IMG/VR virus record: IMGVR_UViG_3300010222_000170
Location: 1 to 43,181 of that record
Length of the DNA stretch: 43,181 nucleotides
Direction: 5' to 3' (one strand)
Source: a virus
Taxonomy: Duplodnaviria > Caudoviricetes
Both the position numbers and the translations under genes were made by a program. The notes under the pieces were generated by a model that did not search any database, had not been told where the DNA came from, and saw nothing but the letters and a program-made list of their open reading frames with translations. Of this stretch, positions 6,153-43,124 are shown piece after piece (position 1 is the first letter of the stretch; every line of letters starts with the position of its first letter).

Positions 6153-6223
6153 GCGCAGGAACCGCCGAGAAGCGATTTCGGCCCCGCGTTGCAGCGCGGG
6201 ACCTGCGCTCTGAGAACAGAGCG
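6153..6223 (+). ncRNA. Structured 5' leader (three-way junction plus ATG-proximal alternative hairpin), copy 1
   Basis: GCGCAGG/CCTGCGC encloses CCGAGA-AGCGA-TTTCGG and CCCGCG-TTGCAG-CGCGGG; CGCTCTG-AGAA-CAGAGCG ends at ATG 6224. Confidence 0.6.
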
Positions 6224-6718
6224 ATGGCAACTACGCAATCCAGCGTTGAAAACGCTACCGACGACCGACGCATTGACCTCGAAAGAATTGAACGCGCTTT
6301 GACCGACGACATGACGGTCCGCGACCACGCACCCGCGCAGTATCTCGTCGCCCGCGACGGCGACGACCACGAGGAGCACCTCGTGGATACCGACGCCGCC
6401 GCGTGCGATTGTGAGGACGCGCACTTCAGAAACGTCGTGTGCGTCCACCTCGCCCGCGCGGCGCTCCACCACGCCTACCGCTCGTCGCCGAACACCCGCC
6501 TTGTGGCGCGGGTCCTCGCGGCCCTGAGCGAGCTCGGCTGCCCGCACGACGTCGCCGGCTGCGGCGGTCCGACTGACGCGGGCCAGCGGGGACTCCCCTG
6601 TGAGGGGTGCATCTCCAGCACGTCGCACGGGCATTGGGTCGTCTGGCAGCGACTCGCGAACGCCGCGGTCGTGGAGCCGGACGTGGCGACCGACGGCGGC
6701 TCGGAGGCGAGCCGATGA
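6224..6718 (+). CDS. SWIM zinc-finger protein
   Basis: CDCEDAHFRNVVCVH (CxC...CxH) plus further Cys residues. Confidence 0.8.
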   Translation: MATTQSSVENATDDRRIDLERIERALTDDMTVRDHAPAQYLVARDGDDHEEHLVDTDAAACDCEDAHFRNVVCVHLARAALHHAYRSSPNTRLVARVLAALSELGCPHDVAGCGGPTDAGQRGLPCEGCISSTSHGHWVVWQRLANAAVVEPDVATDGGSEASR

Positions 6719-6975
6719 GCCGACTCGCCGACATCCCCGACGACCGTCACGAGTGCCCGGAGTGCGGTGCGGGCTTCAAACGCCGCGCCGACCGCCGCGA
6801 GCACCTGCGCGACATCCACCCCGAGACGCTGCCCGACGGCGCGGCGGCGTGTTCGTGTGCAGGCAGCGCCGAGGCGGACGTGAGCGTGACGCGGGACTCC
6901 CAGACGGGCCGCGACCGCGAGCTCCACACCTGCCCTCGGTGCGGCGACCGTGTTTCCGGAGGGCGGTTCCGATGA
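6715..6975 (+). CDS. C2H2 plus zinc-ribbon protein
   Basis: CPECGAGF...HLRDIH; CSC...CPRCG. Confidence 0.7.
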   Translation: MSRLADIPDDRHECPECGAGFKRRADRREHLRDIHPETLPDGAAACSCAGSAEADVSVTRDSQTGRDRELHTCPRCGDRVSGGRFR

Positions 6976-7145
6976 CTCGCGCGGAGCGGGAGTTCGGACG
7001 GGAGATCGACGATGCAATCCACGAGGCACGCGGTGCGGGGATGACCGACGACAAGATCGCGGATGTCCTCGCCGATCGGGCGGCCGACGTTAGGGACTCC
7101 GAGCCGCTGTCGGCGTTGTTCGGCGGGGGGGAGGACGGCGGATGA
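6972..7145 (+). CDS. Hypothetical protein
   Basis: MTRAEREFG..., ATGA overlaps on both sides. Confidence 0.6.
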   Translation: MTRAEREFGREIDDAIHEARGAGMTDDKIADVLADRAADVRDSEPLSALFGGGEDGG

Positions 7146-7261
7146 CCTGCGAGCACTGCCATCGCTCCGCGCGGCCGGGCGGGCGGTTGTGCATCCGGTG
7201 TGAAGAGATCGAACACGAGGCGCGGCGCGCGGCCGCAGCGAAGGGTGGTGACGGCGAATGA
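7142..7261 (+). CDS. Zinc-finger microprotein (39 aa, not in ORF track)
   Basis: MTCEHCHRSARPGGRLCIRCEEIEHEARRAAAAKGGDGE; ATGA overlaps. Confidence 0.6.
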   Translation: MTCEHCHRSARPGGRLCIRCEEIEHEARRAAAAKGGDGE

Positions 7262-7446
7262 CCCGCCTCGCCGCGCACGCGTATCCCGTCGACGAACCCG
7301 CGGACGACGAACTCCCAGAGATCACCCAGCACCGGAGCCGGCACGGTCGCTATCTTCGGTGTTCCGGCTGCGGTAGTGAGGTAGTTACGTCTGCGGAGGG
7401 GATGCTGCACGACGAGGGCTGTGCACGTCACAGGAGCTGGCGATGA
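7258..7446 (+). CDS. Small zinc-binding protein
   Basis: CSGCG...H...C; ATGA overlaps. Confidence 0.6.
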   Translation: MTRLAAHAYPVDEPADDELPEITQHRSRHGRYLRCSGCGSEVVTSAEGMLHDEGCARHRSWR

Positions 7447-7787
7447 CCCACGAGACCACCGTCCGCCAGATCCTCAGCGGCCACGAACTGCCGGGCGACA
7501 CGCCGCGCTGTTGTCAGTGCGGGAGTCTGCTGGAAGGCGCACGGGTCGTGGTGTGCGCCCGAAGCATGGACGGCGCTGATACGTGGGGCGTCAACACGGT
7601 GTGGTGTCGCGAACACGCCCCTGCCGACGTGCCCGAGACCCCACACGGCGAGACGGCGCTCGCCGACGCCCGGGTCGGGACGCTCGCGGATGTCGTTGAG
7701 CAGACCCATGTCCACGCGCTGATCGATGTCGTCGTGACGGACGCGGCACTTCGCGAGGGCAACCGCAAGGCGGTGCAGGAGCCATGA
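7443..7787 (+). CDS. Zinc-binding hypothetical protein
   Basis: CCQCG...WCREH; ATGA overlaps. Confidence 0.6.
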   Translation: MTHETTVRQILSGHELPGDTPRCCQCGSLLEGARVVVCARSMDGADTWGVNTVWCREHAPADVPETPHGETALADARVGTLADVVEQTHVHALIDVVVTDAALREGNRKAVQEP

Positions 7788-8026
7788 CCGACGACGAGTG
7801 GCGGTACGGTGCGGTTCACATCGGCCGCTTTGAGACGCGCCATGCGGCGATCGGAGCGGCGGCACGGAACGGCCGCCACCTTCCTGGCGGGTTGTGGGAG
7901 CAAGTCACTGCCGAACGCGAGGACGACCTCTGTTCCGGTATGGAGAGGTACTTCGTCGCTTGCAAACCTTCGACGCCCAACCCGGAGAATCGCTGCCGGT
8001 TCTGCGGCGGGGTGGTCGAACGATGA
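7784..8026 (+). CDS. Hypothetical protein, Cys-containing C-terminus
   Basis: CRFCG; ATGA overlaps. Confidence 0.55.
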   Translation: MTDDEWRYGAVHIGRFETRHAAIGAAARNGRHLPGGLWEQVTAEREDDLCSGMERYFVACKPSTPNPENRCRFCGGVVER

Positions 8027-8145
8027 CCGGCTGCGACCCGATCATCGTGGCCGGCGACGACGCGGTAATCTTGGGCGAGCCCGACGACGCCGAGGACGAC
8101 GAGAGCGAGCGCGCGACGCTCGATGAGTTCGGGGTTGTGCGATGA
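8023..8145 (+). CDS. Acidic microprotein (40 aa) ending in TLDEF
   Basis: MTGCDPIIVAGDDAVILGEPDDAEDDESERATLDEFGVVR; ATGA overlap. Confidence 0.5.
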   Translation: MTGCDPIIVAGDDAVILGEPDDAEDDESERATLDEFGVVR

Positions 8146-8194
8146 TCGGCGGGCTTGACACCCCTGCTGTTTGACAACCCCACCCAGAATCAAA

Positions 8195-8228
8195 GCATTT
8201 ATTACTGTGAGGGTATATAGTGTATATG
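8195..8228 (+). promoter_or_regulatory. Promoter with GTATAT direct repeat (candidate RHH operator)
   Basis: TTTATTA at 8198-8204 followed by GTATAT-AGT-GTATAT. Confidence 0.55.
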
Positions 8229-8263
8229 TGAGCGGGGGAACGAACCCGCCACACCAACCGACC

Positions 8264-8608
8264 ATGAGCGCAACCAACGACGATACGACCGAGCAGAACT
8301 GGACCGACGAAACCGCGAGCGAATCGGAGACGGCGATCAACCGCCATCTCAGCCATCAGGGTGCGACCGACTCCCTCGCCGGGGCGATCGCGGACGCGGC
8401 CGCCGACGCGGGGCTCAACCGGATGGAGATCGGCTACGAGGACCGCGGCTCGTCCAAGACGATTTACGTCCACTCGGGCGACAACGCCGTGCCCGACGTG
8501 CTCCACGAGCGGCTGACCGACATGGGCTTTGCGGTCATGGATCACTTCGATCACACCGAGGGCGTCAACGGCCCCCGCGGGTGCAAGTACGAGGACACCA
8601 AATACTAA
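8264..8608 (+). CDS. Hypothetical protein (first gene of cassette)
   Basis: Acidic ORF starting MSATNDD downstream of promoter. Confidence 0.7.
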   Translation: MSATNDDTTEQNWTDETASESETAINRHLSHQGATDSLAGAIADAAADAGLNRMEIGYEDRGSSKTIYVHSGDNAVPDVLHERLTDMGFAVMDHFDHTEGVNGPRGCKYEDTKY

Positions 8609-8615
8609 CGACGCC

Positions 8616-8689
8616 GGCCGACGCCGAAACGCAGCACCGAGCTGTGTCGGCGGGGGGCTGGCCGCCCCCGTCCTGATGACGGCAGGCCA
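8616..8689 (+). ncRNA. Type II hammerhead ribozyme
   Basis: GCC-GAAAC-GCAGC/GCTGT-GTC, stem I GGCGGGGG/CCCCCGTC, CTGATGA-C-GGC; predicted cleavage after C8648. Confidence 0.85.
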
Positions 8690-8697
8690 CTCAAACC

Positions 8698-9360
8698 ATG
8701 ACAACGACATCCCAAGCGGACGGCGGCGAAGTTGAGGTTGAGTACGATGGACAGGCCGTTACGGTCCCTACGACGATACGGCGCAGCGACCTCGCGGGCT
8801 ACTTCGGCAGTGTCGCCAACACCTGTCCCGTCGAATACATTTACGTCTACGACGGACGGCTCCGTGCCGAAGGACAAGCCGACGAGACGACTCGCGTTAT
8901 CGCAACGTATCGCCCCGACCGTGTGGACTCGGTCGGAGGCGGGTGGGACGGATGGGGAGCCGAACTCGTTGACGGTGCGGCCGAAGGCACGCCCCCGAAC
9001 ACGCTCTGGGAGCGTGGCAGCCAAGAGCCGATGACCGACGGCGGCGTGGACGTGGCCGATGCCGACACCGACGAACGGGACCGCAGCCTGATGGACACGC
9101 TTGCGCCCCTCGCCGGCGAGGGCCGCACCCCCGTCAGGGACCTGAGCCACCGCGATGACCCGCGGTTGCATATCGACACGCCCGCCGGCGAGATCCAGAC
9201 CTCGCGCCAGCCCGATAGCGTTGAGAAGATCGGCAGCGCGACCCAGCGGCGCTGGACTTGGGGCGAGTACCGACTCGAAGAGGAGCGCGACGGCCACCCC
9301 GATCTCGACGATGACGAGCGCCACGCGGTGGTCGTGACGCGCGTCGGGCAAGGGGACTGA
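8698..9360 (+). CDS. Hypothetical protein (possibly two fused modules)
   Basis: Acidic 220-aa ORF with internal MTDGG junction. Confidence 0.7.
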   Translation: MTTTSQADGGEVEVEYDGQAVTVPTTIRRSDLAGYFGSVANTCPVEYIYVYDGRLRAEGQADETTRVIATYRPDRVDSVGGGWDGWGAELVDGAAEGTPPNTLWERGSQEPMTDGGVDVADADTDERDRSLMDTLAPLAGEGRTPVRDLSHRDDPRLHIDTPAGEIQTSRQPDSVEKIGSATQRRWTWGEYRLEEERDGHPDLDDDERHAVVVTRVGQGD

Positions 9361-9363
9361 CCC

Positions 9364-9549
9364 GTGTCCGATACCACTACCGACGGCCGCAAAGCGACGA
9401 CGATCCGGGTGTACAAAGACGAGCTCGAAACGCTGAAGCGAGCGAAGCGCCGCATTGAGTACGAGGTCGACGGCGACCTCGCAATGGGCGAGGCGCTGAC
9501 AATGCTCGCCGAGACGTACCTTGAAATGGCCGGCGAATCGGCCGATTGA
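9364..9549 (+). CDS. RHH-like regulator
   Basis: ATTIRVYKDELETLKRAK...MGEALTMLAETYL. Confidence 0.7.
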   Translation: MSDTTTDGRKATTIRVYKDELETLKRAKRRIEYEVDGDLAMGEALTMLAETYLEMAGESAD

Positions 9550-9551
9550 CG

Positions 9552-9634
9552 TCCATTTTTCGCTAACGTTGCCACTGCTCGTTTTTACGCTGCAGTACCA
9601 TCTCCACGCCCAAAACTCAGGTTAGGCGTGGAGA
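9552..9634. terminator. Termination zone between convergent units
   Basis: T-tracts after the stop and 10-bp inverted repeat TCTCCACGCC/GGCGTGGAGA (9601-9634). Confidence 0.5.
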
Positions 9635-9652
9635 GATCGGCCCCAGAAACAG

Positions 9653-10828
9653 TTATCGACGCACGTCCGCGAACGCACCCTCGTCGATCCCCCGCAGCGC
9701 CTTGTGGGGGTCGTTGATCACGACGAGCGCCTGGTCCCAGCCCGTGTCGGTGAGCGACGCACACGAAACCTCGGTGTCGCTGTGGATGTTGACGGTCCCG
9801 CCACCGGCTCCCGTTGTCGCGAGCGGGCCGTCGACGTCCACCGTCACACCGGGGCCGAAGGTCACGGCCGTGCCCTTGACCAGATTCATCGCCGCCCCGT
9901 CGCCGGTGATCGTCGTGTCGCGGATCTGGTAGTCCCCGCCGTAGGCGTCGAGCGGCACGGCCCCCTCACCGCCCCACCGCTTTCCGGCGTCGAGCCGACA
10001 GCCCCTGATTCCGAGTTCGCCGCCGTAGAGTTGGATGGTGCCCTCAAGCGTGAGCGATTCGAGGCGGGCGTTCTGTGCGGTGCCGGCGTCGAACTGAAAA
10101 TTGGCTTGGTTGACCTGCACCGTGGTCCGGTCGCGACCAGCGCCGCGGAGTCGCCAGTCGGCGGTCTGATGCACGCCGACCTGCCCGGAGTTAAGCGCCG
10201 AGCCCGGTTCGTTGCCGTGAACGCCCTTCGAGACGGCGATCGCACAGTCGTGTTCGATGCTCCGGGGATCGCAGTTGAGCGCGTCCTGGATCGTCCCGAG
10301 CGGCTCGGTCTCGGTTCCTTTGCCGGTGCCGAACTCGCCGTGGCCGACCCGGAGCGTGCGGTCGCCCGACGAGCGCTCCGTGCGACCGAGGACGCCGTTG
10401 GCCGGGTCGGAGGCCTCGCCGGCGCGGGCTTTCCACGGCGCGCGCTTCGCGGAGCTCCCGCCTCGGTCGTCGGGAGCTCCGTTACCCGTCCCGGTCTCGT
10501 CACCGCCACCGCCGCCACCACCGCCACCATCGCCACCGCCGCCGAAGCGATCGGGCCGATACGCGAGCGCTTCCTCGTGGCTCATCGCTTCGCCGTCGAT
10601 CTCGACCTGCACGCCATCGGGGGCCTCAATTGAGGCGATCCACCCGCGGACCCGATATTCGTCCCAGCCGCCCCACACCTCGCCGCTCGCCTGCCAGCCG
10701 CCGCTGATCGAGTCGTTGCCTTCGAGCGATCCGTCCGCTTCGGCGAGCTCGCCGTTGATCTCGATGCTGTACGTCGCCTGTCGACCGTCGGGTGTGCCGA
10801 CCCCGACGATGAAATCTGACTGGTCCAT
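9653..10828 (-). CDS. Two-domain protein with poly-Gly linker and putative parallel beta-helix (pectin-lyase-like) domain
   Basis: GxGT..EPLGTIQDAL...IAVSKGVH...LRGAG...TTV pattern typical of beta-helix N-caps; start (10828 vs 10915) uncertain. Confidence 0.6.
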   Translation of the reverse strand: MDQSDFIVGVGTPDGRQATYSIEINGELAEADGSLEGNDSISGGWQASGEVWGGWDEYRVRGWIASIEAPDGVQVEIDGEAMSHEEALAYRPDRFGGGGDGGGGGGGGGDETGTGNGAPDDRGGSSAKRAPWKARAGEASDPANGVLGRTERSSGDRTLRVGHGEFGTGKGTETEPLGTIQDALNCDPRSIEHDCAIAVSKGVHGNEPGSALNSGQVGVHQTADWRLRGAGRDRTTVQVNQANFQFDAGTAQNARLESLTLEGTIQLYGGELGIRGCRLDAGKRWGGEGAVPLDAYGGDYQIRDTTITGDGAAMNLVKGTAVTFGPGVTVDVDGPLATTGAGGGTVNIHSDTEVSCASLTDTGWDQALVVINDPHKALRGIDEGAFADVRR

Positions 10829-10952
10829 GATTTGAAATTCGGACACGTCTCGCACACCACAGCGGCCGCTGGAGCGGTCGCTGTCGGTCGCGAGCGCCCG
10901 CACAGCGGCCACCACGCCCGCCGTTAGTCAATCGTCGCGCGCGTGCGTCTAC

Positions 10953-11120
10953 TCACGTCCACTGCAGGTCGAAGGCGATCCGAGCGTGGGCGGTGGCGAT
11001 CATGACCCAGAGGAACGCGACGTATTGATCGCCACGGGACAGAAAAACGATGGATGCCGTCACCGCGGTCGCCACCACCGCCTTATCGAAGATGGACAAC
11101 AAATCGTCGGTCTCGACCAT
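10953..11120 (-). CDS. Small two-TM membrane protein (holin-like candidate)
   Basis: Two hydrophobic segments in 55 aa. Confidence 0.55.
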   Translation of the reverse strand: MVETDDLLSIFDKAVVATAVTASIVFLSRGDQYVAFLWVMIATAHARIAFDLQWT

Positions 11121-11224
11121 GCGGGATCGCAACGACGCAGGCACTTCACCGTTTACGTCCGCCGGTCTTACAGGTGGTCAACGCCACCGTCTCGATGTCG
11201 GTGACGGATACTCCACCCTATTCG

Positions 11225-11608
11225 TCACTCGATCCGGAACGCATCGGCCCACTCCGACGGCGTTTTATCGACATCGGGAAAGCGCGCCGAGAGCACCGGC
11301 ACCACGTCGGTTGCGAGGTCGCCCAACGTCCGGGTGTCCCCATTCAGACCGATGGTGTCGAGTGCCTGATAGCCCGTGGTCCCGTCGCCATACAGCCGCG
11401 CGATATACCATTACGCCACGTCGGGATGGGCGTCTGTCAACGCAGGATAGAAATCGGCGACGGTAGCGGGGTCAATCGTCTGGCCCGACCACCCCGTGAT
11501 ACCATCAGCGTCGGTGTATTTTGCCGTCAGAACGTCGTCTTTCGAATCGTCCACAGAACGCGTCACTGCTGGCGTCAGAAACCATCTGTCGTGCGTTTGT
11601 GTGCTCAT
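11225..11608 (-). pseudogene. Tail-associated protein interrupted by in-frame TAA at 11411-11413
   Basis: Frame continues 61 codons after the stop (WYIARLYGDG...WADAFRIE). Confidence 0.65.
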
Positions 11609-11611
11609 CTG

Positions 11612-12214
11612 TCAGACTCCATTCACCGTCAGGTAATCGGATGTGAGAGGGTTCTTAATTTTGATTCCGATACGTCCACTACCATACGTCCCATCCGTCG
11701 TTGATAGCGTATCCTTGACATTCCCATTCAAATCCCTCAGTTCCATCGTCATCGAACCTCCGGATTTCCATTCCGACAGCACTACCCGAAACTCGGTTAG
11801 ATCGGCGGAAGACGTATACCTAAGGGAAGTTCTACTGCCCGAATCATAACGGAAAAAATATAGAGAGCCATAGCCATAACTAACCGCCGAATAGCCGGAA
11901 AATCCACCCCTCCCGTTGCTGTTCTGCCCTCCGAAAGCGATCCCGCCGGGGTTTGTATCGTCTCGATTGTGAATATATACCGAAAACGGAGTGTCAGCTG
12001 GCCCATAATTCGTTCCGTCTTTTGTGATGATGTTGTCACCATAACCGGACTTGGAGAAAACCGAATGGCTTCCCTCGTAGTAATAGAAATCTGCGACTTT
12101 CACGCCGCCGGTGTCGCCGGACCAGTCCGAGAGCGGGGACGAGCCCTCCCAGTCCTCAACGACGGTCGTCCCGCCGCCCGACTCGTTGATGATCCCCGCA
12201 CTGTTGATGCTCAC
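11612..12214 (-). CDS. Putative receptor-binding/tail fibre tip protein, low GC
   Basis: Beta-rich lectin-like sequence, GTGA overlap, visibly AT-richer than flanks. Confidence 0.55.
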   Translation of the reverse strand: MSINSAGIINESGGGTTVVEDWEGSSPLSDWSGDTGGVKVADFYYYEGSHSVFSKSGYGDNIITKDGTNYGPADTPFSVYIHNRDDTNPGGIAFGGQNSNGRGGFSGYSAVSYGYGSLYFFRYDSGSRTSLRYTSSADLTEFRVVLSEWKSGGSMTMELRDLNGNVKDTLSTTDGTYGSGRIGIKIKNPLTSDYLTVNGV

Positions 12215-12984: not shown

Positions 12985-12985
12985 T

Positions 12986-20597: not shown

Positions 20598-20834
20598 ATG
20601 AGCGAGTACGTGTGCTCAGAGTGCCGCGAGCCGATCAACGAAGGCGCTGATGTCTGTCCGAACTGCTCCTATTCACCCGGCAAAGACCACGCCAAGTGGG
20701 GAAAAATCGACGGGGTTCTCGGCGGGCTGCTCATCGCGAGTATTGTCGGCTCTCCCTTCGGGCTATACCTCGTGTGGCGAGCGCTGCGACACAACCGAGC
20801 CGCGAAGAAAACGTCGCCCGCGGTGCCGGCCTAG
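20598..20834 (+). CDS. Antisense moron: zinc ribbon plus transmembrane protein
   Basis: CSEC...CPNC then hydrophobic segment; own TTTATGTCG promoter 30 nt before ATG. Confidence 0.75.
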   Translation: MSEYVCSECREPINEGADVCPNCSYSPGKDHAKWGKIDGVLGGLLIASIVGSPFGLYLVWRALRHNRAAKKTSPAVPA

Positions 20835-21817
20835 TCGTCGCCGAACGTCGTGATTTCTGCCTGTTCCGCCGGTAGCGGTGGGTGGGGAAGGAACGTCATG
20901 AACTGAATCCATGACGGAACCGATTCTAGCGCTGGGCCGTTATGGGTGCAGCAAATTGATACGAGGTTGAACGGGTCGTTGCGGAGTTCGGGGGGCGCGT
21001 CTTGTGAATCGCGCGCCCTGACGATATGATGGACATTAAGTTTCATGCCGTGGTGCTCAAGATGCTCGGCTTGACTTTTTCCACAGATTCGGCATTCGTG
21101 GCCGTCCCGTTCGCGGACAAGTTCCTTTTTACTTTCCACCCATCCCCGACCATACCCAGCTAAGCCACCATCCCATAACGGATGATCTTCGCCGGAGAAG
21201 GCCTCCGACCGCCACGCTTGATCGCACGAATCCGAGCAGACATTGTGTTGATTAACCATTGATGGGTGGCGGGTAATGTCATCATGACACCAAACACACT
21301 CAACAGTGACCATTCCGCCTTGCCAGTTGTTTGTGAGTTCGCCAGTGACATTTTCAGAAACCCACAAGTCCTTGCAATCCTTTGAACAAAACCGGCTGCG
21401 TTCTTCTCGGGATGGGTGCTCTATGTACTCGTCACCGCACTGCTCACAAGTGAGCGTCACCTTATCTTTCAGTTTCTCGCCTTGGCACTTGTGACTACAG
21501 AACCGCTTGTCGTACTTTGAGGGGTAATACTCAAATTCCTCACCACATACCTCACAACCACGCGTTTCGGCGACCAGACTTTCATTATGAACTCGCGTGT
21601 GGTGGCACTTCAATCCTTGTGAGGTGGGGAACGAATCAGCACACGTGGGGCAGTCGTGCTCGGCGTCTTGGTGTCGGGTGTGCTCTTTCAGGCTTTCGTC
21701 GTGTTTGGCCGAATGATGCACCCCCAAGCCTGAACGCGTGTCAAACGACCTACTGCACGTCGGACACTCATGCTCCTCACCGTCACCGCTTTCACCGTTC
21801 GCGTCTTCCGTACTCAT
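20831..21817 (-). CDS. HNH endonuclease with C2H2 and CxxC...FCSxxC zinc-binding repeats
   Basis: VRERDGHECRICG...VHHI...NLVSIC; lower GC than flanks. Confidence 0.85.
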   Translation of the reverse strand: MSTEDANGESGDGEEHECPTCSRSFDTRSGLGVHHSAKHDESLKEHTRHQDAEHDCPTCADSFPTSQGLKCHHTRVHNESLVAETRGCEVCGEEFEYYPSKYDKRFCSHKCQGEKLKDKVTLTCEQCGDEYIEHPSREERSRFCSKDCKDLWVSENVTGELTNNWQGGMVTVECVWCHDDITRHPSMVNQHNVCSDSCDQAWRSEAFSGEDHPLWDGGLAGYGRGWVESKKELVRERDGHECRICGKSQAEHLEHHGMKLNVHHIVRARDSQDAPPELRNDPFNLVSICCTHNGPALESVPSWIQFMTFLPHPPLPAEQAEITTFGDD

Positions 21818-21880
21818 GCTTTGGTCCCGCCAAAGCACGGTCCCGCTCCATCGGGGCCGTTTCAGGCAATACCGTGCTTT
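21818..21880 (-). ncRNA. Structured 5' leader, copy 2
   Basis: AAAGCACGGT/ACCGTGCTTT encloses GCC-TGAAAC-GGC and CCCG-ATGGAG-CGGG; GCTTTGG-CGGGA-CCAAAGC ends at ATG 21817. Confidence 0.6.
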
Positions 21881-21919
21881 AGTTACCTCTCTCTACGGTT
21901 TTCGGCGTCTTAAAACCTC

Positions 21920-29515: not shown

Positions 29516-30238
29516 TTACGCAATTAGAACAGGGTCGAAAACGTCGCGGAAGTGCCACTCGGCTTCGTGATGGCAGGACTGGCATAGTGACATGAGGTTG
29601 TAGTCTTCATTGGTCCCGCCGCAAAGCAGCGGGACGATATGGTGCAGGTCGGTTGTGGATTCGCCACAGTTCGCGCATGGTTCGCCCGCGTAGCGAGACC
29701 GGATCGTGTTCCACGACGGACCGGGGAGTTGCTTTTTCACGGCGTCGTAGACCGACTTCCCACCACGCCAGTTCGGGTGTTCTTGGCCAGTGACGCCTTT
29801 CATGCCGTTTTCGTCGCGGGCGGATGCTCCGAGCGCACCATGTTTAGCCCGGAGTTTGCTGGCGAGTTCGGGGTTTTCCTCCACCCAGCGTTGCAGCGAC
29901 AGTTCGCCATTCGCTGCAAGTTCGCGGTTCTTCTCATGGGCGGCTTTGACTTGTGCTTCGCGCTCCTCGGGAGTCATCTGGCTCCATTTGAGCTGTTCGG
30001 CTTCGGACTGCCCCCGCCGCTCAATACCCAAATGCCTTAACGCGCCTTGGATCGCCGTCCGGCTAACGCCCAGTTCATTCGCTACTGCATTTTCCGACAT
30101 TTTAGCATACAATTGGCGGATGGTTTCTCCACCCACCCGCTCAACGGTTAGGTGCTTCTCCTCGTGTTTCTTGCCGAAGTGCGATTGCAAACCCGGCTCA
30201 GTATCGAACGGTTCGGAGCAAGCAGGACACTCCACCAT
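29516..30238 (-). CDS. HNH endonuclease with C2H2 finger and HTH
   Basis: CANCG...DLHHIVPLLCGGTNEDYNLMSLCQSCHHEAE. Confidence 0.9.
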   Translation of the reverse strand: MVECPACSEPFDTEPGLQSHFGKKHEEKHLTVERVGGETIRQLYAKMSENAVANELGVSRTAIQGALRHLGIERRGQSEAEQLKWSQMTPEEREAQVKAAHEKNRELAANGELSLQRWVEENPELASKLRAKHGALGASARDENGMKGVTGQEHPNWRGGKSVYDAVKKQLPGPSWNTIRSRYAGEPCANCGESTTDLHHIVPLLCGGTNEDYNLMSLCQSCHHEAEWHFRDVFDPVLIA

Positions 30239-34352: not shown

Positions 34353-34363
34353 GATTGTAGTAT

Positions 34364-34412: not shown

Positions 34413-34432
34413 ACGACACCGCAACCGCAGCC

Positions 34433-35716: not shown

Positions 35717-35717
35717 G

Positions 35718-36409: not shown

Positions 36410-36416
36410 AGTTTAC

Positions 36417-36647
36417 TCACTTGAGGAACTCCGCGATCGCCTCCGCGATCACGCGGATCGCCTTCGGACCGCCGAACAGGATGACGCCCACTGAAAAGAC
36501 GATCCGGAGGGTGGAGTCGTTGATCTCGCCGAGGCCGAAGGACTGGGCGGCAACGAGGGCGAGTCCGACGGCGATCGCGAGCGCCGCGACCCACTCCATG
36601 AGCTCTCGCGTCGGCGGGTCGCTGGAGGATTGGTCTTTTGCGGCCAT
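36417..36647 (-). CDS. Membrane protein (2 TM, holin-like candidate)
   Basis: Two hydrophobic segments in 76 aa. Confidence 0.7.
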   Translation of the reverse strand: MAAKDQSSSDPPTRELMEWVAALAIAVGLALVAAQSFGLGEINDSTLRIVFSVGVILFGGPKAIRVIAEAIAEFLK

Positions 36648-36682
36648 TCATGGGGTTGAGTTGCTCATATGTCAGTCCAAAG

Positions 36683-36884
36683 TGGAGGCGGGCCGGGGGC
36701 GAGTTCGAGGGGATGGAACCCTCGCCGGTGGATGACGTTGCGTTGCCGAGGCGCGGCCCGAGCCCGGCCCGCGTGGCCGCGGGTTGGCAGCCGTCGACAG
36801 CGACATGGTGGGGAGCGTCTGTCGCTGCTCGTTGCGTGGCATCACTCCCATCGGACCGCCGCGCCGAGGGAAGCGGCGCGCGGT
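36683..36884 (-). ncRNA. Candidate structured intergenic RNA (hairpin, pseudoknot, degenerate tRNA-like domain)
   Basis: Multiple stems, T-arm-like GAGGG-TTCCATC-CCCTC, 10-bp closing stem followed by CTCCA. Confidence 0.4.
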
Positions 36885-36896
36885 CGTCACCTGGGG

Positions 36897-37124
36897 TTAC
36901 GAACGCACCCGACCCGGCGAGACGGTGAGTTGGCCGTTCGGCGTCTCGACGTGGAGTGCGACCGTCGTGCGGGCGTCCTCGCGGTTGAGTGTGACGCCAC
37001 GGAGCGGGGCCTTGACGATGCGACCGCCGACGAGGACCGTCAAGGTCTCGCCTATGCGGCGCTGGTATTCGCGGTACTCGCGGGTCGGGTGGGCGCGCGA
37101 CGGCGAGGCGGCGTCGGTGCTCAT
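36897..37124 (-). CDS. Hypothetical protein
   Basis: MSTDAAS..., ATGA overlap. Confidence 0.55.
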   Translation of the reverse strand: MSTDAASPSRAHPTREYREYQRRIGETLTVLVGGRIVKAPLRGVTLNREDARTTVALHVETPNGQLTVSPGRVRS

Positions 37125-37831
37125 TCGCCTGCCTCGTGGATGCCGACCGCGAGCGCGTTCCGGAACATCCACTGGTCGCGGCCTTGAAGGTTCGATGCAG
37201 ATTTCGCCTTGCGGATGAAATCAAACAGCGCATCGCGGTCGAACGGCTCGTCGTGCTTGTCCTCGATCGCAAGGGCGTGGAGCGCATCGGCCAACCGCTG
37301 GGTCCGGGCGATCGTCTCGTCCTTTGAGAGGTCTTTGACGAGATAGTCGATCGTCGCGTGGTGGGCGACGCCACACTCACAGACCTTCGTCGATTTTTCG
37401 CCGATGGGTTCGGCCGACCAGTCGCCGTTGACCGGATCGTCGAGCTCGAAGTGCTCACCCATACCCCAGTCGTACCCCGGCCGGGGGTGCTCGCGGCCGG
37501 TGCGGCCGCCGACGCAGACGTCCGAGTGGTGATGGCCGAACTCCGGGGTCGTCGGCGAGACCCGATCTTTTACCGACTGAGCGCCGGTATCGGGCTTCGG
37601 TGGGTCGACGTCCTTCAGTTTGCGAAAGCACGACGAACAGTAGCGATGGTCGCGCCGGAGGGTTTTGAGAATCGACGTTGCGGCATCGCGGGCCGAGCAC
37701 TGCCAGCGACAATACTCTCGTGAGAAACCGATTCGGAGCGGATAATGACCGTCGCAGAACTCACACTGACAGATCTCGTATTCGTTGTCGTCGTCAATGA
37801 CCGGCGCGTGAGGGGTTTGGGCCAAGCTCAT
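37121..37831 (-). CDS. Multi-zinc-finger hypothetical protein
   Basis: CEFC...YCRWQC, YCSSC, CECG..H; start MSLAQTP. Confidence 0.7.
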   Translation of the reverse strand: MSLAQTPHAPVIDDDNEYEICQCEFCDGHYPLRIGFSREYCRWQCSARDAATSILKTLRRDHRYCSSCFRKLKDVDPPKPDTGAQSVKDRVSPTTPEFGHHHSDVCVGGRTGREHPRPGYDWGMGEHFELDDPVNGDWSAEPIGEKSTKVCECGVAHHATIDYLVKDLSKDETIARTQRLADALHALAIEDKHDEPFDRDALFDFIRKAKSASNLQGRDQWMFRNALAVGIHEAGE

Positions 37832-38012
37832 GACTAATGGTTGATGGGTTGCGAAGGAGAGACGGTACGGCGTGGGCGGCTCGCGCCGCACGGGCCGGCC
37901 ACCACACGACGTCATCCCGGCAAGTCGATCGGGTGATGGGCTGCCGGCCTCGTGGTTCGGATGGTTACTCTAACCGAGAGCGGATGGTCGTATTAACATG
38001 TCGGAACCCGTA

Positions 38013-38315
38013 TCACAGTACGGATTTCGAACCGACGGCGTCCGGGTCGATGTAGAACTGTCGGTAGTGGTCCGTTGCCGGCGTGTTGGTCTCGGCCAGC
38101 AACCCTTTCTTGCGCAGCTTCGAAAGGGCCTGTTCGACGGTCCCCCGCTTGTAGCCCGTCGCATCGGCGATTTGGGAGTGCGTGAGCGGGCCAGAAACCC
38201 GCAACACCGAGTAAACGTACCCCGTCGAGTGAGGCGGTAAGTCAAGCGTCACGAGCTCGTCGTAGAGCGGGACCGCGCGGCCGCGGTCGCGGGGGTCGTC
38301 AGAGTCAGTCGGCAC
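38013..38315 (-). CDS. Winged HTH transcription regulator
   Basis: GPLTHSQIADATGYKRGTVEQALSKLRKKGLL; probable GTG start. Confidence 0.8.
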   Translation of the reverse strand: MPTDSDDPRDRGRAVPLYDELVTLDLPPHSTGYVYSVLRVSGPLTHSQIADATGYKRGTVEQALSKLRKKGLLAETNTPATDHYRQFYIDPDAVGSKSVL

Positions 38316-38922
38316 CGGTATCCCCCCGCGAACCCAACCCCCATGCATAAAAGGCTGCGTCGCACTCGCACGGGATCCCACAGTCCGGGCACGAACTCGG
38401 TTCGTCGAAGTGCTCGCTGTAGTAGTTCGGTACCGTCTTCAGCCGGTCGAAGTCGAAGTGCTCGAACAGCGCCGAACTACCGTACCGTCCCTCTCGAACC
38501 CACGAGACGCCGAGCACCGCGTTCGCACCCTGCCGGAGCGCCCACTCGAACCGGGCCTCGAAGATACGCTTACCCAACCCGCGGCCTTGGTAGTTGGACG
38601 TGACACAACCGATGTGCATGACAGCACAGTCGTTCGGCAGGTCCCGCTCTATCAGACTTCGGAAGTACCCACCGACCCACTCTCGGGAGCCAATACCGGA
38701 GAGGCCAAACCCGACCACCTCACCGGCGGCGAGGTCCTCAACGGCCACGCCCCAGACGTCTTGACGGTCGGTGTCCGTTGCGTCTTCGATCCACTCCACC
38801 GCGGCGTCGTCCGCTTCGAGGCCGAACTCGCGGTCCCAAATCCGGAGTGCCGCCCGTGTGTCGTCCGCCTCTATATCGCGGAGGATGGGTTTTGCGGTGG
38901 TGTTGAAAGCTTTACTCATCAT
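38305..38922 (-). CDS. GNAT-family acetyltransferase with C-terminal Cys cluster
   Basis: CVTSNYQGRGLGKRI acetyl-CoA motif; CPDCG..CEC. Confidence 0.85.
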   Translation of the reverse strand: MMSKAFNTTAKPILRDIEADDTRAALRIWDREFGLEADDAAVEWIEDATDTDRQDVWGVAVEDLAAGEVVGFGLSGIGSREWVGGYFRSLIERDLPNDCAVMHIGCVTSNYQGRGLGKRIFEARFEWALRQGANAVLGVSWVREGRYGSSALFEHFDFDRLKTVPNYYSEHFDEPSSCPDCGIPCECDAAFYAWGLGSRGDTGAD

Positions 38923-39679
38923 CGTCCACCTCGCAATCTTGACACAGAACCATCTGCGCGTCGTCGTGTTTGGCGATGAGCGCGCGCAACTCCTCGGGCG
39001 GCATCTCCGAGTGACCCCAAAAGCAGTGGCCGCTATCGGTGCCGATCTCGTCTTGGACCTCCCGCTCCACCTCCATCAACCATTCGTAGTGTTCGGGATA
39101 GTGTGCTTGGAGTTCGACTAACTCCTCGTCCCGGTTCGCGAACGCGCCGCAGTAGCACTCCCCCGACCGATGGATGTTCTCGACGACCGGGTTGTGCGGG
39201 AGTTCGTGGTCGTCGATATAGTCGAGACAGTCCTGTTTTGACCACTCGGCGATCGGCGCGTGCCAGAACCACCGGCCGGTCGCGTCCTCGGTCGTCTCGG
39301 CGTCGGCCGTGCGCATCCGGCGCTCGCTCTCCGATTTGCGAACGCCGGTGTAGTAGTGGGGGGTATCGTCACAGTCGGCAGCCACGCGCTGTAACGAATG
39401 CGCTTTGAAGTACCGATAGGCCCACCCGTGCGCCGCTGATCCGGGAAAGCCCCATTCAAGCGCGAACTCTTTGAGCGACTTGTTCGGCGTCTCGACGCGG
39501 AGCGGCCAGTTGTGACGGTCGCACACGTCCCGGACAAACTGCTCGTTCTCGGGGATGCCCGTGCCGGTATTGAGATGGAGGACGGTATCAGTGCGGCCGC
39601 GCTCCATGCAGAGATGGGTCGAAACGAGCGAATCGTGACCGCCGCTGAAGAGAGCGAAATGGTCGGCGGCGTCGCTCAT
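38912..39679 (-). CDS. PAPS-reductase-family (PP-loop) protein
   Basis: FSGGHDS PP-loop, TGVRKSESERR, PIAEWS, SGECYCG. Confidence 0.85.
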   Translation of the reverse strand: MSDAADHFALFSGGHDSLVSTHLCMERGRTDTVLHLNTGTGIPENEQFVRDVCDRHNWPLRVETPNKSLKEFALEWGFPGSAAHGWAYRYFKAHSLQRVAADCDDTPHYYTGVRKSESERRMRTADAETTEDATGRWFWHAPIAEWSKQDCLDYIDDHELPHNPVVENIHRSGECYCGAFANRDEELVELQAHYPEHYEWLMEVEREVQDEIGTDSGHCFWGHSEMPPEELRALIAKHDDAQMVLCQDCEVDDDE

Positions 39680-39858
39680 GCAAAGTCCTCCAACGTGGTC
39701 GTCGAGTGCCGCTCGAAGAGCTCGCGGACCTCATCGTAGTCCCGCGGCCGACGGCCCACCATGTCCGCGAACTCGTTTTTGTGCTTGCGGGCGTGGGCCG
39801 GCCCGGAGAGCGAGTTCGGGTCAAGTTCTTGGCCGCAGATTGAACAAGTCTTAGGCAT
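39676..39858 (-). CDS. Small C2H2-like zinc protein
   Basis: CSICG...HARKH; ends TLEDFA. Confidence 0.65.
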   Translation of the reverse strand: MPKTCSICGQELDPNSLSGPAHARKHKNEFADMVGRRPRDYDEVRELFERHSTTTLEDFA

Positions 39859-40240
39859 GCCTGGCTACCCCCATCGCCGCCTTTCGCTCATGCTCCAGCG
39901 TCTTGATCGGCTCTCCACACTCGCAAATACGGTACTGGTCGACCGATTCGATTCGCGCGGTCACAGTCTCGAATTTCTCCCACCCGACGCGTCCTTCGTC
40001 GCCGGTTCGCGGCTGCCAAAGCTGAAGGTCCGAGTGTGGCCCCGGCGCTGTCAAAAGCCAGTTCTGGTTGCGTTCTTCGTCGTGGAGCAGTAGCTTCGGG
40101 CCGAAGTATGGCTGTGTCCGTCGGACTACGTTCACGTCACCAAGACCGTGGATATGGATCGTGTCGTGGCGCTCGCCACGAAGCATAACCGTCTTTGACT
40201 GACAGTCGGTCCCTGCCGAGGAGTTGTCACCGTCGCTCAT
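39851..40240 (-). CDS. Hypothetical protein
   Basis: 129-aa ORF coupled to both neighbours. Confidence 0.6.
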   Translation of the reverse strand: MSDGDNSSAGTDCQSKTVMLRGERHDTIHIHGLGDVNVVRRTQPYFGPKLLLHDEERNQNWLLTAPGPHSDLQLWQPRTGDEGRVGWEKFETVTARIESVDQYRICECGEPIKTLEHERKAAMGVARHA

Positions 40241-40449
40241 CCGTCGGCCTCCAGCTCGTCAAGTCCTCCTTCGACGGCCTCAAGTCGCTGCTCTAGCTCG
40301 TCAAGTCCTGCTTCGACGGCCTCAAGTCGCTGCTCCGTCTCGACGAGTCGGGTCGCGTCCGCACAGCCGGGACAGTCCGGCAGGTCGTCGTCGCGGCGCG
40401 GGCCGTGCTCGTCGCAAGTGCGGTTTCGGGGGGTGGAGTGGTCGGTCAT
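40237..40449 (-). CDS. Zinc-binding plus coiled-coil microprotein
   Basis: CDEH...CPGC then duplicated 14-aa coil. Confidence 0.65.
   Translation of the reverse strand: MTDHSTPRNRTCDEHGPRRDDDLPDCPGCADATRLVETEQRLEAVEAGLDELEQRLEAVEGGLDELEADG
40253..40336. repeat. 42-bp tandem duplication
   Basis: Two near-identical units at 40253-40294 and 40295-40336. Confidence 0.9.
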
Positions 40450-40706
40450 GAGTCACTGAAGAAGTCGTCAAGGTCGCGTGGTTGCTGTCCGACTCGTTCG
40501 TCTGCCCACTGCCAGAAGCAGTCCGGACAATCGAACACGCCCCGAACGGTGGTGGTCCGGCGGGCGTTCGCACTGCACAGACGACAGAACCCGATCGCCG
40601 TGGGGGCGGACTTGATCAATCCGAGCGGTCCCCGCGGCCACTCTCGCCGCCAGTCGGACGGCCGTTTTGTGTAGGGGTCGCGGTACGAATCGATTGAATT
40701 AGCCAT
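40446..40706 (-). CDS. Zinc-ribbon protein
   Basis: CRLC...CPDC; start MANSIDS; ends DLDDFFSDS. Confidence 0.65.
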   Translation of the reverse strand: MANSIDSYRDPYTKRPSDWRREWPRGPLGLIKSAPTAIGFCRLCSANARRTTTVRGVFDCPDCFWQWADERVGQQPRDLDDFFSDS

Positions 40707-41181
40707 CGTCCAACACCTCCCGCGGATTGACGACCGCCGGACCGTCGCCCACCCATTCGGCGTACGCGTACCACTCGTCACTGTACTGATAGGCGTAAAA
40801 CTCCCCGCACGATTCGCAGACGAGCGCGCCGTCCGGGTCGCCGACCACGTCCACCGCCGCGCCACAGACCGGGCACTCGCCGCACAGCATCCCCGGCTTG
40901 CCGGCGCTTCGGAGGAACACGTCATCGTCGACGATCCGATCGTGCAGCGCGTCGGCGTCGAACGGCCGCGTCGTCCCGCAGATGTCACACTCCCAGCCGT
41001 CATCAACCCGCATTCGTGCGGCGCACGTCGGACACGGGACTTCGACGGCGTGGGGGAGTCGGGCGTTCTCGAACCGCGGCGGATCGTAGGTCTTGATTTC
41101 GCCGCTGCCCTTACACCGCGGGCACTCGGCAACGCCGAAGCCGGGGGCGTCCGTTATCGGTGTGTTGTCGGCGGGGGTCAT
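40699..41181 (-). CDS. Multi-zinc-ribbon protein
   Basis: Several CxxC pairs. Confidence 0.7.
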   Translation of the reverse strand: MTPADNTPITDAPGFGVAECPRCKGSGEIKTYDPPRFENARLPHAVEVPCPTCAARMRVDDGWECDICGTTRPFDADALHDRIVDDDVFLRSAGKPGMLCGECPVCGAAVDVVGDPDGALVCESCGEFYAYQYSDEWYAYAEWVGDGPAVVNPREVLDDG

Positions 41182-41855
41182 GCCGACCTCCCGAGCGTCA
41201 CCTGTTCGGGCGGCGGGTTCGCGTGCGCCTCCTCGACGGCTTCAAGGATCGCCTCGCTCAGTTCCCGCGGGACCTTCGCGCGTTCGGCGGGGTCGCGGGT
41301 GTACGACTCCAAACCGCTCAGGTTGCCATCGCCACCGTTCGCTCGGTCGGTGTTGTACTCGTGACAAGCCGCACCGTACGAACACGACCGATAGGAGAAT
41401 CCGGGTGGGTGCTCGCCCCACAGATCGGTCGGTTTCATGTAATTCTCCCCGTACTGACAGTACGTGAGCCGGCCGGTGGGCTCGCCGATCACCTGCCGGA
41501 GGTACCCCTGCGGGTTCTCCAGAAACCAGTACTCCGGCGCGAGCGCTTTGATAAGGCCGATGGTATGGTAGACGAGCGCGACCGCCTCGCGTGCGGCGGG
41601 CGTTTGCGGTTCGCCGTCGATGACGCGTTCAAAGCGGCTTGCGGCGATCGTAAACTCGGTGCACGGCGGACTCGCCAGCACCATGTCGGCCTCGGGGAGG
41701 TCGGCGGGTCGCAGGTCCAACACGTCGGCCTGGATGTCCGGCTCGAAGCGCTCGTCGATGTCGACGGTCACGACCTCCCAGCCGTCGGCCTCGGCGAACG
41801 CGGCGCTGAAGCCTCCGAGGCCGGCGAAGAGGTCAATAACTGTCCGTTCACTCAT
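41178..41855 (-). CDS. Short DNA (cytosine-5) methyltransferase
   Basis: DLFAGLGG motif I, ASPPC motif IV, ENP motif VI. Confidence 0.9.
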   Translation of the reverse strand: MSERTVIDLFAGLGGFSAAFAEADGWEVVTVDIDERFEPDIQADVLDLRPADLPEADMVLASPPCTEFTIAASRFERVIDGEPQTPAAREAVALVYHTIGLIKALAPEYWFLENPQGYLRQVIGEPTGRLTYCQYGENYMKPTDLWGEHPPGFSYRSCSYGAACHEYNTDRANGGDGNLSGLESYTRDPAERAKVPRELSEAILEAVEEAHANPPPEQVTLGRSA

Positions 41856-42052
41856 CCCTGACCTCCGTCCGCAAGCCACTCGTCTAAATGGATTATCGCG
41901 TCGCCGCCGGTACCGTGGCCATTCGCCTCAACCACGCACAGTTTGACGAGTTTGGACTCGCCTTCCAGTTCGCCCATGATGGTGCCTGCGTCGGTGAACT
42001 CCTCGTCGCAGACCGGGCAGATGCCGCCGTGGACGAGTTCGTCGTCGGTCAT
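41852..42052 (-). CDS. Small zinc-binding protein
   Basis: MTDDELVHGGICPVC...; ATGA overlaps. Confidence 0.6.
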   Translation of the reverse strand: MTDDELVHGGICPVCDEEFTDAGTIMGELEGESKLVKLCVVEANGHGTGGDAIIHLDEWLADGGQG

Positions 42053-42201
42053 CGGTTGCCTCCATCGGTCGCCGCGTCGGCCTCGGCCAGCCCGTCGACG
42101 CACGGCAAGCACGCCTCCGCGAACTCGGGATGGTCGACGCGCGTGACGCGTGTGTCTCGCCCGCAGCGGGAGCAAATACCATCGTACCAGCTGTCAGTCA
42201 T
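42049..42201 (-). CDS. Zinc-finger microprotein (50 aa, not in ORF track)
   Basis: MTDSWYDGICSRCGRDTRVTRVDHPEFAEACLPCVDGLAEADAATDGGNR. Confidence 0.6.
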   Translation of the reverse strand: MTDSWYDGICSRCGRDTRVTRVDHPEFAEACLPCVDGLAEADAATDGGNR

Positions 42202-42260
42202 CTATACCCCCTGCGCGCTCTCAATGACGCGCTCGGACTGGCGGGCGGCCTCTTTCCAAT

Positions 42261-43046
42261 TCATTTTTCTTCACCATCCGCGAGAGGCTTGACAAGATGG
42301 CGTTCAGTGAATTGTCTCGTGTAGGATTCTACAGTTTGATGGCAAACTGAGCAGAGTAGCATTAACAGTTCGTCTGCGTTGACCCCACCCGCAAGTACGG
42401 GTATGATGTGATGGACATTTTTTCGGGTTGTGATGGCTTTACCGCAGAGCTCGCACTTGCCGTCGTTATCCTCTAAGAAACCTCGGCGTGTCGTTCCCCA
42501 CGGGTGAGGGAGTTGGTGCGTGACCGACCGATGGATTGTTACCCCGCCTGTCCACTGTGGGTGGTTGGGGCCACGGCGATTCTTAGACCGCCATTCGTGC
42601 TGGCAACTCGCTTGGCAGAATGTCGATGACCCCACCTCCGACTCTGGTCGTTCATAGCTATCACCACAGTTTTTACAGGTTAGTTCGACGCGGTTCGTCG
42701 GCTGATCTTGGCCGCGGTGCGCGCACTCAAGTCCACAGAATCGGCGATAGCCGCGGCTAGACCTTACTTCAAACGAGTCGCCGCAATATTCGCAAACCAG
42801 TTCCACGCGATCGCGATTGGCAATCCCCTGACATTCGCGAGAACAGAAATCGTTGGGGTCGTTAACCTCAAAAGACGTGAAAGTGTCCCCGCACTGCTCG
42901 CAGTTCACCTCAACGCCAGCAATGCTTTCGCCATGCGCCATCGCATGGTGTTGTTTCATCGCCGACGTGCAATCGAACTTGTCGACACCGCACGTCGGGC
43001 ACGCTACACCGTCAACGCTAAAGTCGCTAAGCTCTTTTTGTCGCAT
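42261..43046 (-). CDS. HNH endonuclease with C2H2 and CxxC...FCxxxC repeats
   Basis: CELCG...VHHIIPVLAGGVN...LLCSVCHQ; probable start MRQKELSDF. Confidence 0.85.
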   Translation of the reverse strand: MRQKELSDFSVDGVACPTCGVDKFDCTSAMKQHHAMAHGESIAGVEVNCEQCGDTFTSFEVNDPNDFCSRECQGIANRDRVELVCEYCGDSFEVRSSRGYRRFCGLECAHRGQDQPTNRVELTCKNCGDSYERPESEVGSSTFCQASCQHEWRSKNRRGPNHPQWTGGVTIHRSVTHQLPHPWGTTRRGFLEDNDGKCELCGKAITTRKNVHHIIPVLAGGVNADELLMLLCSVCHQTVESYTRQFTERHLVKPLADGEEK

Positions 43047-43124
43047 GCTTCTGGCACTCCCGGAAGCGCTGGGTTCGGTGTCCAACCACCGGACCCCTCT
43101 ACAGTTTTCAAGAGGTCGCGCTTC
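43047..43124 (-). ncRNA. Structured 5' leader, copy 3
   Basis: GAAGCGC/GCGCTTC encloses CCTCT-TGAAAACTGT-AGAGG and GGTCCGGTG-GTTGGA-CACCGAACC; GCTTCCGG-GAGTG-CCAGAAGC ends at ATG 43046. Confidence 0.6.

Follow-up and report, generated by a model that had tools for sequence, protein, structure and literature searches.

Three structured leaders, E1, E2 and E3, stand directly in front of protein-coding genes in the complete 43,181-nucleotide (nt) virus record IMGVR_UViG_3300010222_000170, which is the window of this analysis. They are members of one widespread RNA family that is absent from Rfam and from the papers searched, and the family is best read as a leader with a cis-encoded antisense RNA and not as a riboswitch. 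In this reading, to which we give about three chances in four, each leader is likely overlapped by an antisense RNA of about 50-65 nt that would pair with it and block translation of the first open reading frame (ORF). The family and its covariation, a strand-specific bias in wobble pairs, a reverse-strand motif inside the first ORF and antisense RNA detected at a pair of homologous sites in a single sequencing run are the observations that lead to it.

A family of leaders with a common fold

The initial annotation had described at these loci a closing stem (P1) around two hairpins, A and B, and a further hairpin that abuts the ATG, and all three structures are reproduced, stems and loops included, by sequence inspection and folding. 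Genes for proteins related to that of E1, found in one plasmid and in two further viral contigs, are preceded by the same layout with a different sequence. A pattern for hairpin B finds 96 loci in GTDB genomes, of which 26 matched one strand only, and these comprise 18 haloarchaeal loci with the full layout and 8 bacterial ones. The covariance model R1, built from 16 loci that all lie outside the window, places the three elements at the top of the window with 44.4, 25.9 and 19.4 bits (next site, 16.8), and the model R3, rebuilt on a corrected structure and again without window sequences, scores them at 47.3 (E1), 37.9 (E3) and 34.7 bits (E2), the next site reaching 12.4. A model that has not seen E1-E3 thus ranks them first to third, and taken as a family they lie far beyond chance. 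The proposal of a covarying cis-regulatory RNA family of leadered haloarchaeal transcripts is supported.

When 101 Halobacteria genomes were searched with R1, scoring 46 candidates in each, 41 gave a match. The covariance-model search of Halobacteria that had been suggested, carried out with R3, returned matches in 25 of 41 genomes, a sample which is largely the source of the training rows. R3 also matches pNRC200 and the viruses HJTV-4, HRTV-DL1 and BJ1, with no match in phiH1 or SNJ1. First-look filters, which are lossy, found no member in pHV1, pHV3, pHV4 or SNJ1; a strict sequence pattern found nothing in viral contigs, and a search with the E2 protein gave one locus only, which is unrelated. 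Rfam 15 holds no match for E1-E3 at E<=5 and none for 18 loci at E<=1, in line with the earlier placement outside named families, and no description of the structure was found in the literature searched, where coverage of subscription papers is poor.

On the corrected structure 91.2% of the cells in 71 rows pair and 19 of the 20 pairs change on both sides, so that the stems do keep pairing despite sequence change, as had been seen in the three copies. The covariation score is 0.515, compared with 0.174 when shuffled and at most 0.098 when slid. Alignment A4, which includes one partial reverse-strand row, was fitted with R1, and its counts for P1 and P2 therefore lean towards the model; the correct P3 pairs were not fitted. 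Removal of a false hit and of redundant copies takes the member set from 81 to 59, and about 80 members are aligned in later counts. Two hits were judged false (L146, removed before counting, and L170, a coding stretch of pHV4); the partial L147 was left out of the promoter count, and the weak or partial hits L161, L204 and L207, which have no TATA box, were kept. The only invariant columns are the G-C pair that closes loop B and the AUG. Loop A carries AGAA, GAAA, AAAA or AAGA in 71 of 80 members and in 71 of 274 control windows, and loop B begins and ends with C and A or with T and G in 65 of 80, its set of sequences being closed under reverse complement.

Opposite strands suit different folds

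The two features that link P1 to the start codon had been claimed for the three elements and hold across the family: in 55 of 59 members the ATG-abutting hairpin leaves a gap of only 0-1 nt to the ATG, and it has at least four bases in common with the 3' strand of P1 in 48 of 59. Its score is >=14 in 75 of 80 members as opposed to 30% with swapped 3' arms, a contrast which argues that the hairpin is not a search artefact.

Non-Watson-Crick pairs were counted in the 59 non-redundant members under a scoring scheme that gives G-U and A-C equal weight. On the mRNA strand the ATG hairpin contains 26 A-C and 3 G-U pairs and P1 contains 32 and 60 (Fisher p 2e-7); 21 members found later give 12 and 2 for the hairpin and 11 and 16 for P1 (p 0.008). 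Because an A-C mismatch on one strand is a U-G pair on the other, the antisense strand is the better fit for the ATG hairpin and the mRNA for P1. Hairpin A also shows G-U pairs on the mRNA strand, and hairpin B has a stem in which nearly all pairs are Watson-Crick, with one one-sided change in 6 pairs across 71 rows, as would be expected if it had to fold on both strands. Folding ensembles agree, since P1 outweighs the ATG hairpin on the mRNA strand in 66 of 80 members and the balance shifts towards the hairpin on the antisense strand (Wilcoxon p 3e-11); on the mRNA strand the hairpin forms once the first 20 nt are removed. Of the mutually exclusive folds proposed in the initial annotation, the sharing of a strand is thus real, but the two folds fit opposite strands.

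A promoter-like motif within the first codons

Downstream ORFs that are otherwise unrelated share a promoter-like motif on the reverse strand at codons 9-13. Position +26 of the ORF is A or T in 45 of 45 members, and +26 and +27 are both A or T in 41 of 45, a rule that holds for 37 of 274 control ORF starts from the same loci; among members found later it holds for 29 of 31, or 11 of 13 after redundancy removal (p 6e-8). A G at +37 is present in 87% of members versus 42%. When a matrix is trained on the sense promoters of the members, its sharp peak falls on the reverse strand at ORF positions +21..+40, where the mean is +0.2 compared with -16.2 in controls and -8.2 on the forward strand, and this peak predicts an antisense start at about -1 to -3. 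Controls score as high as E1 in 8 of 274 cases and as high as E3 in 22; the corresponding figure for L195, a member at which RNA is detected (see below), is 24 of 274, similar to E3. From these scores the motif is predicted to be an antisense promoter, which would be strong in E1, moderate in E3 and weak in E2.

Antisense RNA at homologous loci

A search of RNA runs with L195, a plus-strand member with its ATG at 1585, yielded one raw-read run, X24, which is stranded. The 674 reads that map to L195 cover the minus strand 570-614-fold over about 1530-1584, which corresponds to the 3' two-thirds of the leader, and the plus strand is at zero there; elsewhere in the 601 nt coverage is at most twofold. 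Adapter read-through places the 3' ends of this antisense RNA at 1521-1528, in loop A, and its 5' end lies at about 1583-1584, giving an RNA of about 57-64 nt. A minus-strand tRNA on L225 with 8789 minus and 1.4 plus reads serves as strand control and implies that the reads follow the RNA strand. At a second member, on the minus strand at L225:9925-10001 and flanked by a partial tRNA and by a tRNA accompanied by an integrase, there are 1021 plus and 6 minus reads, and the antisense RNA ends near 9980-9983, again in loop A. Both antisense RNAs fold into two hairpins and a short tail. Sense-strand reads over the two members number 0-6, with neither a short terminated sense leader nor, in a library that captures tRNA well, any tRNA-sized sense fragment. 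RNA runs of the contig type, which are strand-blind, leave the L195 element uncovered.

Proposed mechanism and alternatives

In the proposed mechanism the mRNA would fold into the three-way junction, with P1 retaining the shared strand and the bases before the AUG mostly open, so that the message alone should be translatable. Transcription from the predicted promoter, placed within the first twelve or so codons of the gene, would yield an antisense RNA that starts 1-3 nt before the AUG position and folds into two hairpins, one the mirror of the ATG-abutting hairpin and the other an extended hairpin B in which the C-A mismatches of the sense strand become U-G pairs. It would end in loop A, whose conserved AGAA/GAAA gives a pyrimidine tract on the antisense strand that is likely the terminator; archaeal termination follows a U-tract rule, and the antisense 3' ends at homologous loci fall there. 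Pairing would begin at the complementary hairpin B loops or at the antisense 3' tail and cover the ribosome landing site, and cleavage at the duplex ends, as is reported for the T1/Tant pair of phiH1, would be a likely sequel. What we infer is the presence of the antisense RNA in the virus of the window and, for the family at large, the function of promoter and terminator, the pairing, the repression and the cleavage. Predicted duplexes of E1-E3 are far more stable between cognate partners (-110 to -147 kcal/mol) than between crossed ones (-42 to -56 kcal/mol), and the three RNAs, pairing far better with their own leaders, would therefore act as separate channels.

The antisense RNA could be real and yet exert control through convergent transcription, by collision or occlusion, or through a role in trans, with pairing to its own leader being secondary. 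The two promoters do face each other about 110-130 nt apart, and the abundant antisense RNA of L195 coincides with a cognate ORF almost without reads. Collision, however, needs neither covarying folds on both strands nor complementary hairpin B loops and fixed classes of mismatch, and the accessible parts of two papers report that Tant acts by hybrid formation (PMC4284463, PMC8707807); we regard this explanation as unlikely.

A single mRNA in which a ligand, a protein, salt or temperature decides between the junction and the ATG-abutting hairpin, which is in essence the riboswitch- or attenuator-like device of the initial annotation, appears more improbable again. The shared strand on which it would depend is real and the ATG hairpin covaries with it, the folds are isoenergetic in E1, and the hairpin does appear when the first 20 nt are removed. 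The wobble bias opposes it, since the mismatches of the ATG hairpin suit the other strand, and it would leave the reverse-strand motif in the ORF and the antisense reads unexplained. Beyond the G-C pair closing loop B and the AUG there is no invariant column and hence no apparent ligand pocket, the Rfam searches match no known aptamer family, and the sense reads at two members include no short terminated leader. A refolding step may take place within antisense binding.

It is very improbable that the junction mimics a tRNA and that RNase P or RNase Z, by cutting it, leaves an mRNA with a short leader, or that hairpin B is a DNA cruciform or protein-binding site: loop B has the look of a T-loop, the loop set is closed under reverse complement and P1 measures 7-10 bp, but ARAGORN finds no tRNA in the window, Rfam gives no match, tRNA-sized sense fragments are missing at the two members, and helices that differ in the direction of their wobble bias are more readily explained by two RNAs than by double-stranded DNA. 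Hammerhead or hepatitis delta virus-like cores were sought by eye in E1-E3 and not found, and Rfam agrees.

Several points weigh against antisense pairing as the explanation. The reads come from homologous loci, one run and one study, and not from this virus. At L195 the 5' end is drawn from bin depth and a loose end of 12 reads, with no sharp start listed; at the L225 member every read differs from the locus by the same single letter and no reads fall on the flanks, so that the reads derive from a near-identical copy elsewhere. Inserts in X24 are short, so that the low mRNA signal gives no expression ratio. For E2 the predicted antisense promoter is weak, since 49 of 274 controls reach its score, and when the antisense copy is folded at full length the ATG hairpin prevails over P1 in no more than 47 of 80 members. 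Members are related by descent, and the p-values given here overstate their independence. Models R1 and R3 miss phiH1 and phiCh1. Published start maps add little: the accessible part of the antisense-start table of PMC6523106 lists coding-region starts only and has no row at the position predicted for the pNRC200 member, the accessible part of the Haloferax volcanii start table of PMC4983044 holds no usable member by motif search or in one of its 72 parts, and the accessible part of the PMC10134880 supplement amounts to a name row.

The three elements in the viral genome

A Pfam scan of the window identifies terminase, portal, head-morphogenesis and tape-measure genes, which mark a tailed virus. 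The G+C content of 64%, the acidic proteins and a megablast search of bases 1-25,000, whose single match is a Halorubrum virus, point to a haloarchaeal host. The coordinates of the three elements are collected in Table 1.

Table 1 Features of E1, E2 and E3 in the window; antisense RNAs and antisense promoters are predictions
Feature	Position	Strand	Basis
E1 sense TATA box TTTATA; start predicted near 6149-6151	6120..6125	+	best promoter-matrix window, score 12.0
E1 leader	6153..6223	+	folding; R3 model 47.3 bits
E1 leader P1	6153-6159/6202-6208	+	
E1 leader hairpin A	6164-6182	+	
E1 leader hairpin B, loop TTGCAG	6183-6200	+	
E1 ATG hairpin (mirror of antisense 5' hairpin); ATG 6224	6206-6223	+	
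E1 antisense RNA, predicted: two hairpins and pyrimidine tail	6172..6223	-	fold; ends placed from homologous loci
E1 antisense promoter, predicted, intra-ORF: TTTTCA 6252-6247, conserved G at +37 = 6260	6244..6263	-	
E1 gene: 164-aa (amino acid) SWIM-like zinc-finger protein, first in rightward run of small ORFs	6224..6718	+	
Divergent 67-aa gene beside E1	5913..6116	-	weak VAPB_antitox match, E 2e-4, below curated cut-off
E2 sense TATA box TTTTAAG	21909..21915	-	sequence, promoter matrix
E2 leader: three-way junction and mirror of antisense 5' hairpin; ATG 21817	21818..21880	-	R3 34.7 bits
E2 antisense RNA, predicted: two hairpins, UUUCA tail	21818..21864	+	fold; ends placed by homology
E2 antisense promoter, predicted, weak: TTTCAC 21790-21795	21778..21797	+	
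E2 gene: 328-aa zinc-finger, HNH-like protein, within virion-gene block	20831..21817	-	
E3 TATA-like CTTATG; 25 nt from window end	43151..43156	-	by eye
E3 leader; ATG 43046	43047..43124	-	R3 37.9 bits
E3 antisense RNA, predicted: two hairpins, tail ending UUUUCA	43047..43110	+	fold; ends placed by homology
E3 antisense promoter, predicted: CTAAAG 43018-43023	43007..43026	+	
E3 gene: 261-aa zinc-finger HNH endonuclease	42261..43046	-	Pfam HNH E 8.6e-8

The TATA-like boxes noted earlier upstream of all three leaders are confirmed at 6120 for E1 and at 21915 for E2; the box of E3 is seen by eye at 43156-43151, and the promoter matrix prefers another, weak window there. Compared with shuffled sequences the folding energies have z = -4.5 (E1), -1.5 (E2) and -1.9 (E3), only E1 lying beyond chance. 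In E1 the ATG hairpin is equal in energy to the outer part of P1; in E2 and E3 the junction is favoured, with the E3 junction looser than the family consensus.

The initial assignment of the downstream genes as two HNH genes and one SWIM gene holds directly by Pfam for E3. The E2 protein, which has no HNH match in Pfam, is linked to it by an alignment with the E3 protein at 32% identity (E 2e-30), and the E1 protein, without a Pfam match at E<=0.01, is assigned to SWIM through its homologs. The divergent 67-aa gene beside E1 likely encodes a small DNA-binding regulator. A third zinc-finger HNH gene with an HTH (helix-turn-helix)-like part follows the head-morphogenesis gene at 29516-30238 (-), and neither sequence inspection nor the R3 scan of the window finds a family leader before its ATG at 30238. 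Downstream of E3 on the minus strand are a PAPS-reductase-domain gene (38912-39679) and a C5 cytosine methylase gene (41178-41879), with possible roles in DNA modification.

An ATG at the predicted E1 transcription start, 6149, is in frame with the ORF across the entire leader (25 codons, 6149-6223), and an N-terminal extension of this kind occurs in 7 of 23 homologs; a leaderless start at this ATG could bypass or unfold the E1 leader. As a mechanism of the family a leader peptide was rejected, since an ATG lies near the start in 17 of 80 members only. In the ORF run 3' of E1 a type II hammerhead ribozyme (Rfam RF02276, 46.2 bits, cut-off 37) occupies 8622-8691 (+), between an ORF ending at 8608 and an ATG at 8698, with a predicted cut after C8648. 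Hammerheads directly ahead of a start codon are described for the haloviruses HF1 and HF2 in the accessible part of PMC3088659.

Genes and hairpins around family members

Of 79 downstream ORFs scanned against Pfam, 69 have no match, 5 match SWIM, 2 HNH, 1 TnpB and 2 other zinc-binding families. Restraint of toxic nucleases, which had been put forward as the purpose of the leader, therefore finds no support as a general rule, with nuclease families in only 3 of 79 (2 HNH and 1 TnpB) and no Pfam match to toxin families among them. The ORFs are short, with a median of 106 aa and 23 of 80 at or below 60 aa. For 68 of 80 members a divergent ORF could be selected, and among 67 scanned 27 have HTH, ribbon-helix-helix or antitoxin-like matches at E<=0.001, mostly below curated cut-offs. 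One family leader stands ahead of a 377-aa TnpB gene (L158:1560-1660, -). In BJ1 and Humcor1 (L222:1501-1605 and L217:937-1041) the ATG hairpin is extended by an inserted stem-loop before a PadR gene, and this form of the leader is between the compact family and the 151-nt leader of phiH1.

Hairpin B with the same loop ends also occurs in bacteria, mostly Actinobacteria (L021, L026, L035, L043, L090, L095, L096 and L099), in several cases some 30-45 nt ahead of a Shine-Dalgarno sequence and start codon. R3 gives these loci, which were chosen by the hairpin pattern, 16-33 bits in mostly partial matches. The family may have an antisense counterpart in bacteria.

Significance

A wider view, which is tentative, would see in the family a portable switch of haloarchaeal viruses, plasmids and integrated elements, composed of a divergent repressor gene, a structured leader and a mirror antisense RNA, the promoter of which would be embedded in the opening codons of any gene that comes next. 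No structured antisense RNA family would precede it in archaeal mobile elements, and Tant of phiH1 would be an expanded member; each virus would have several channels, insulated by their loop sequences, that keep early genes silent and confer RNA-based immunity against related viruses, and the hairpin B of Actinobacteria would extend the principle across domains. With the family the single case of Tant gives way to an alignment of about 80 natural variants in which start, end, fold and promoter position are defined, and both target finding by archaeal antisense RNA and the identity of the RNase become testable with small Haloferax reporters. The family model is a search tool for switch regions of haloarchaeal mobile elements, the family would explain conserved N-terminal codons in unrelated small proteins, and it could supply orthogonal RNA repressors for haloarchaeal genetics.

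Comparison with known systems

The C4 and CI RNAs of phages P1, P7 and P4 arise by processing of a sense-strand RNA, and the sites with which they pair lie elsewhere. The family resembles them in that a three-way-junction RNA is linked to early-gene control in temperate elements; it differs in that the junction would be the target and the regulator would come from the opposite strand. Rfam C4 has no match to E1-E3 or to 18 loci, and separate targets were not searched for. CopA/CopT, hok/Sok and SymE/SymR are cis-antisense systems of bacterial plasmids and type I toxin-antitoxin loci, and the SymR promoter lies inside symE. They share with the family a short structured antisense RNA over the translation start and complementary hairpin loops (hok/Sok and SymE/SymR are treated in the accessible part of bioRxiv 10.1101/2025.10.28.685009). 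In contrast to these systems the family has archaeal promoters and a pyrimidine-tract end, and in contrast to type I toxin-antitoxin loci it targets diverse first genes and not one toxin family.

The T1/Tant antisense pair of phiH1 reportedly goes back to Stolt and Zillig in 1993. In the GenBank entry MK002701 Tant starts at -1 of the ATG of PhiH1_295, the first ORF, and T1 starts 151 nt upstream, opposite the imm gene. According to the accessible parts of later papers the two RNAs form a hybrid that is then cleaved by RNase (PMC4284463, PMC8707807), Tant is the first archaeal example of antisense control (PMC8707807), and antisense control in phiH1 remains to be fully explored (genome paper, PMC6210493); in these sources Tant is a single case, described without structure or family. 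The T1 leader is also different from the family in its length of 151 nt, its long inserted domain and the lack of a canonical hairpin B, and Tant is annotated as longer than 151 nt, whereas the family RNAs seen are about 52-64 nt and end in loop A.

The likenesses extend from the Tant start at -1 to several further features. In phiH1 and phiCh1 a reverse-strand TATA-like box lies at +25..+30, and the promoter-matrix score at the start of PhiH1_295 is above all but 4 of 274 controls. By eye phiH1 has a closing stem whose 3' strand could also pair with the bases abutting the ATG, and phiCh1 has GAGCAAGCG/CGCTTGCTC. A small divergent regulator gene is present in imm. The first gene encodes a PadR protein, as in BJ1 and Humcor1, where a PadR gene that has a domain in common with PhiH1_295 stands behind the family leader; in BJ1 this leader is a canonical P1-A-B junction separated from the ATG by a longer spacer, and that of Humcor1 looks similar. 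An antisense transcript that runs from the edge of the start codon over the leader, the trait of T1/Tant, is seen at L195 and at L225:9925-10001 and is predicted for E1-E3, and by analogy the family likely works as T1/Tant does.

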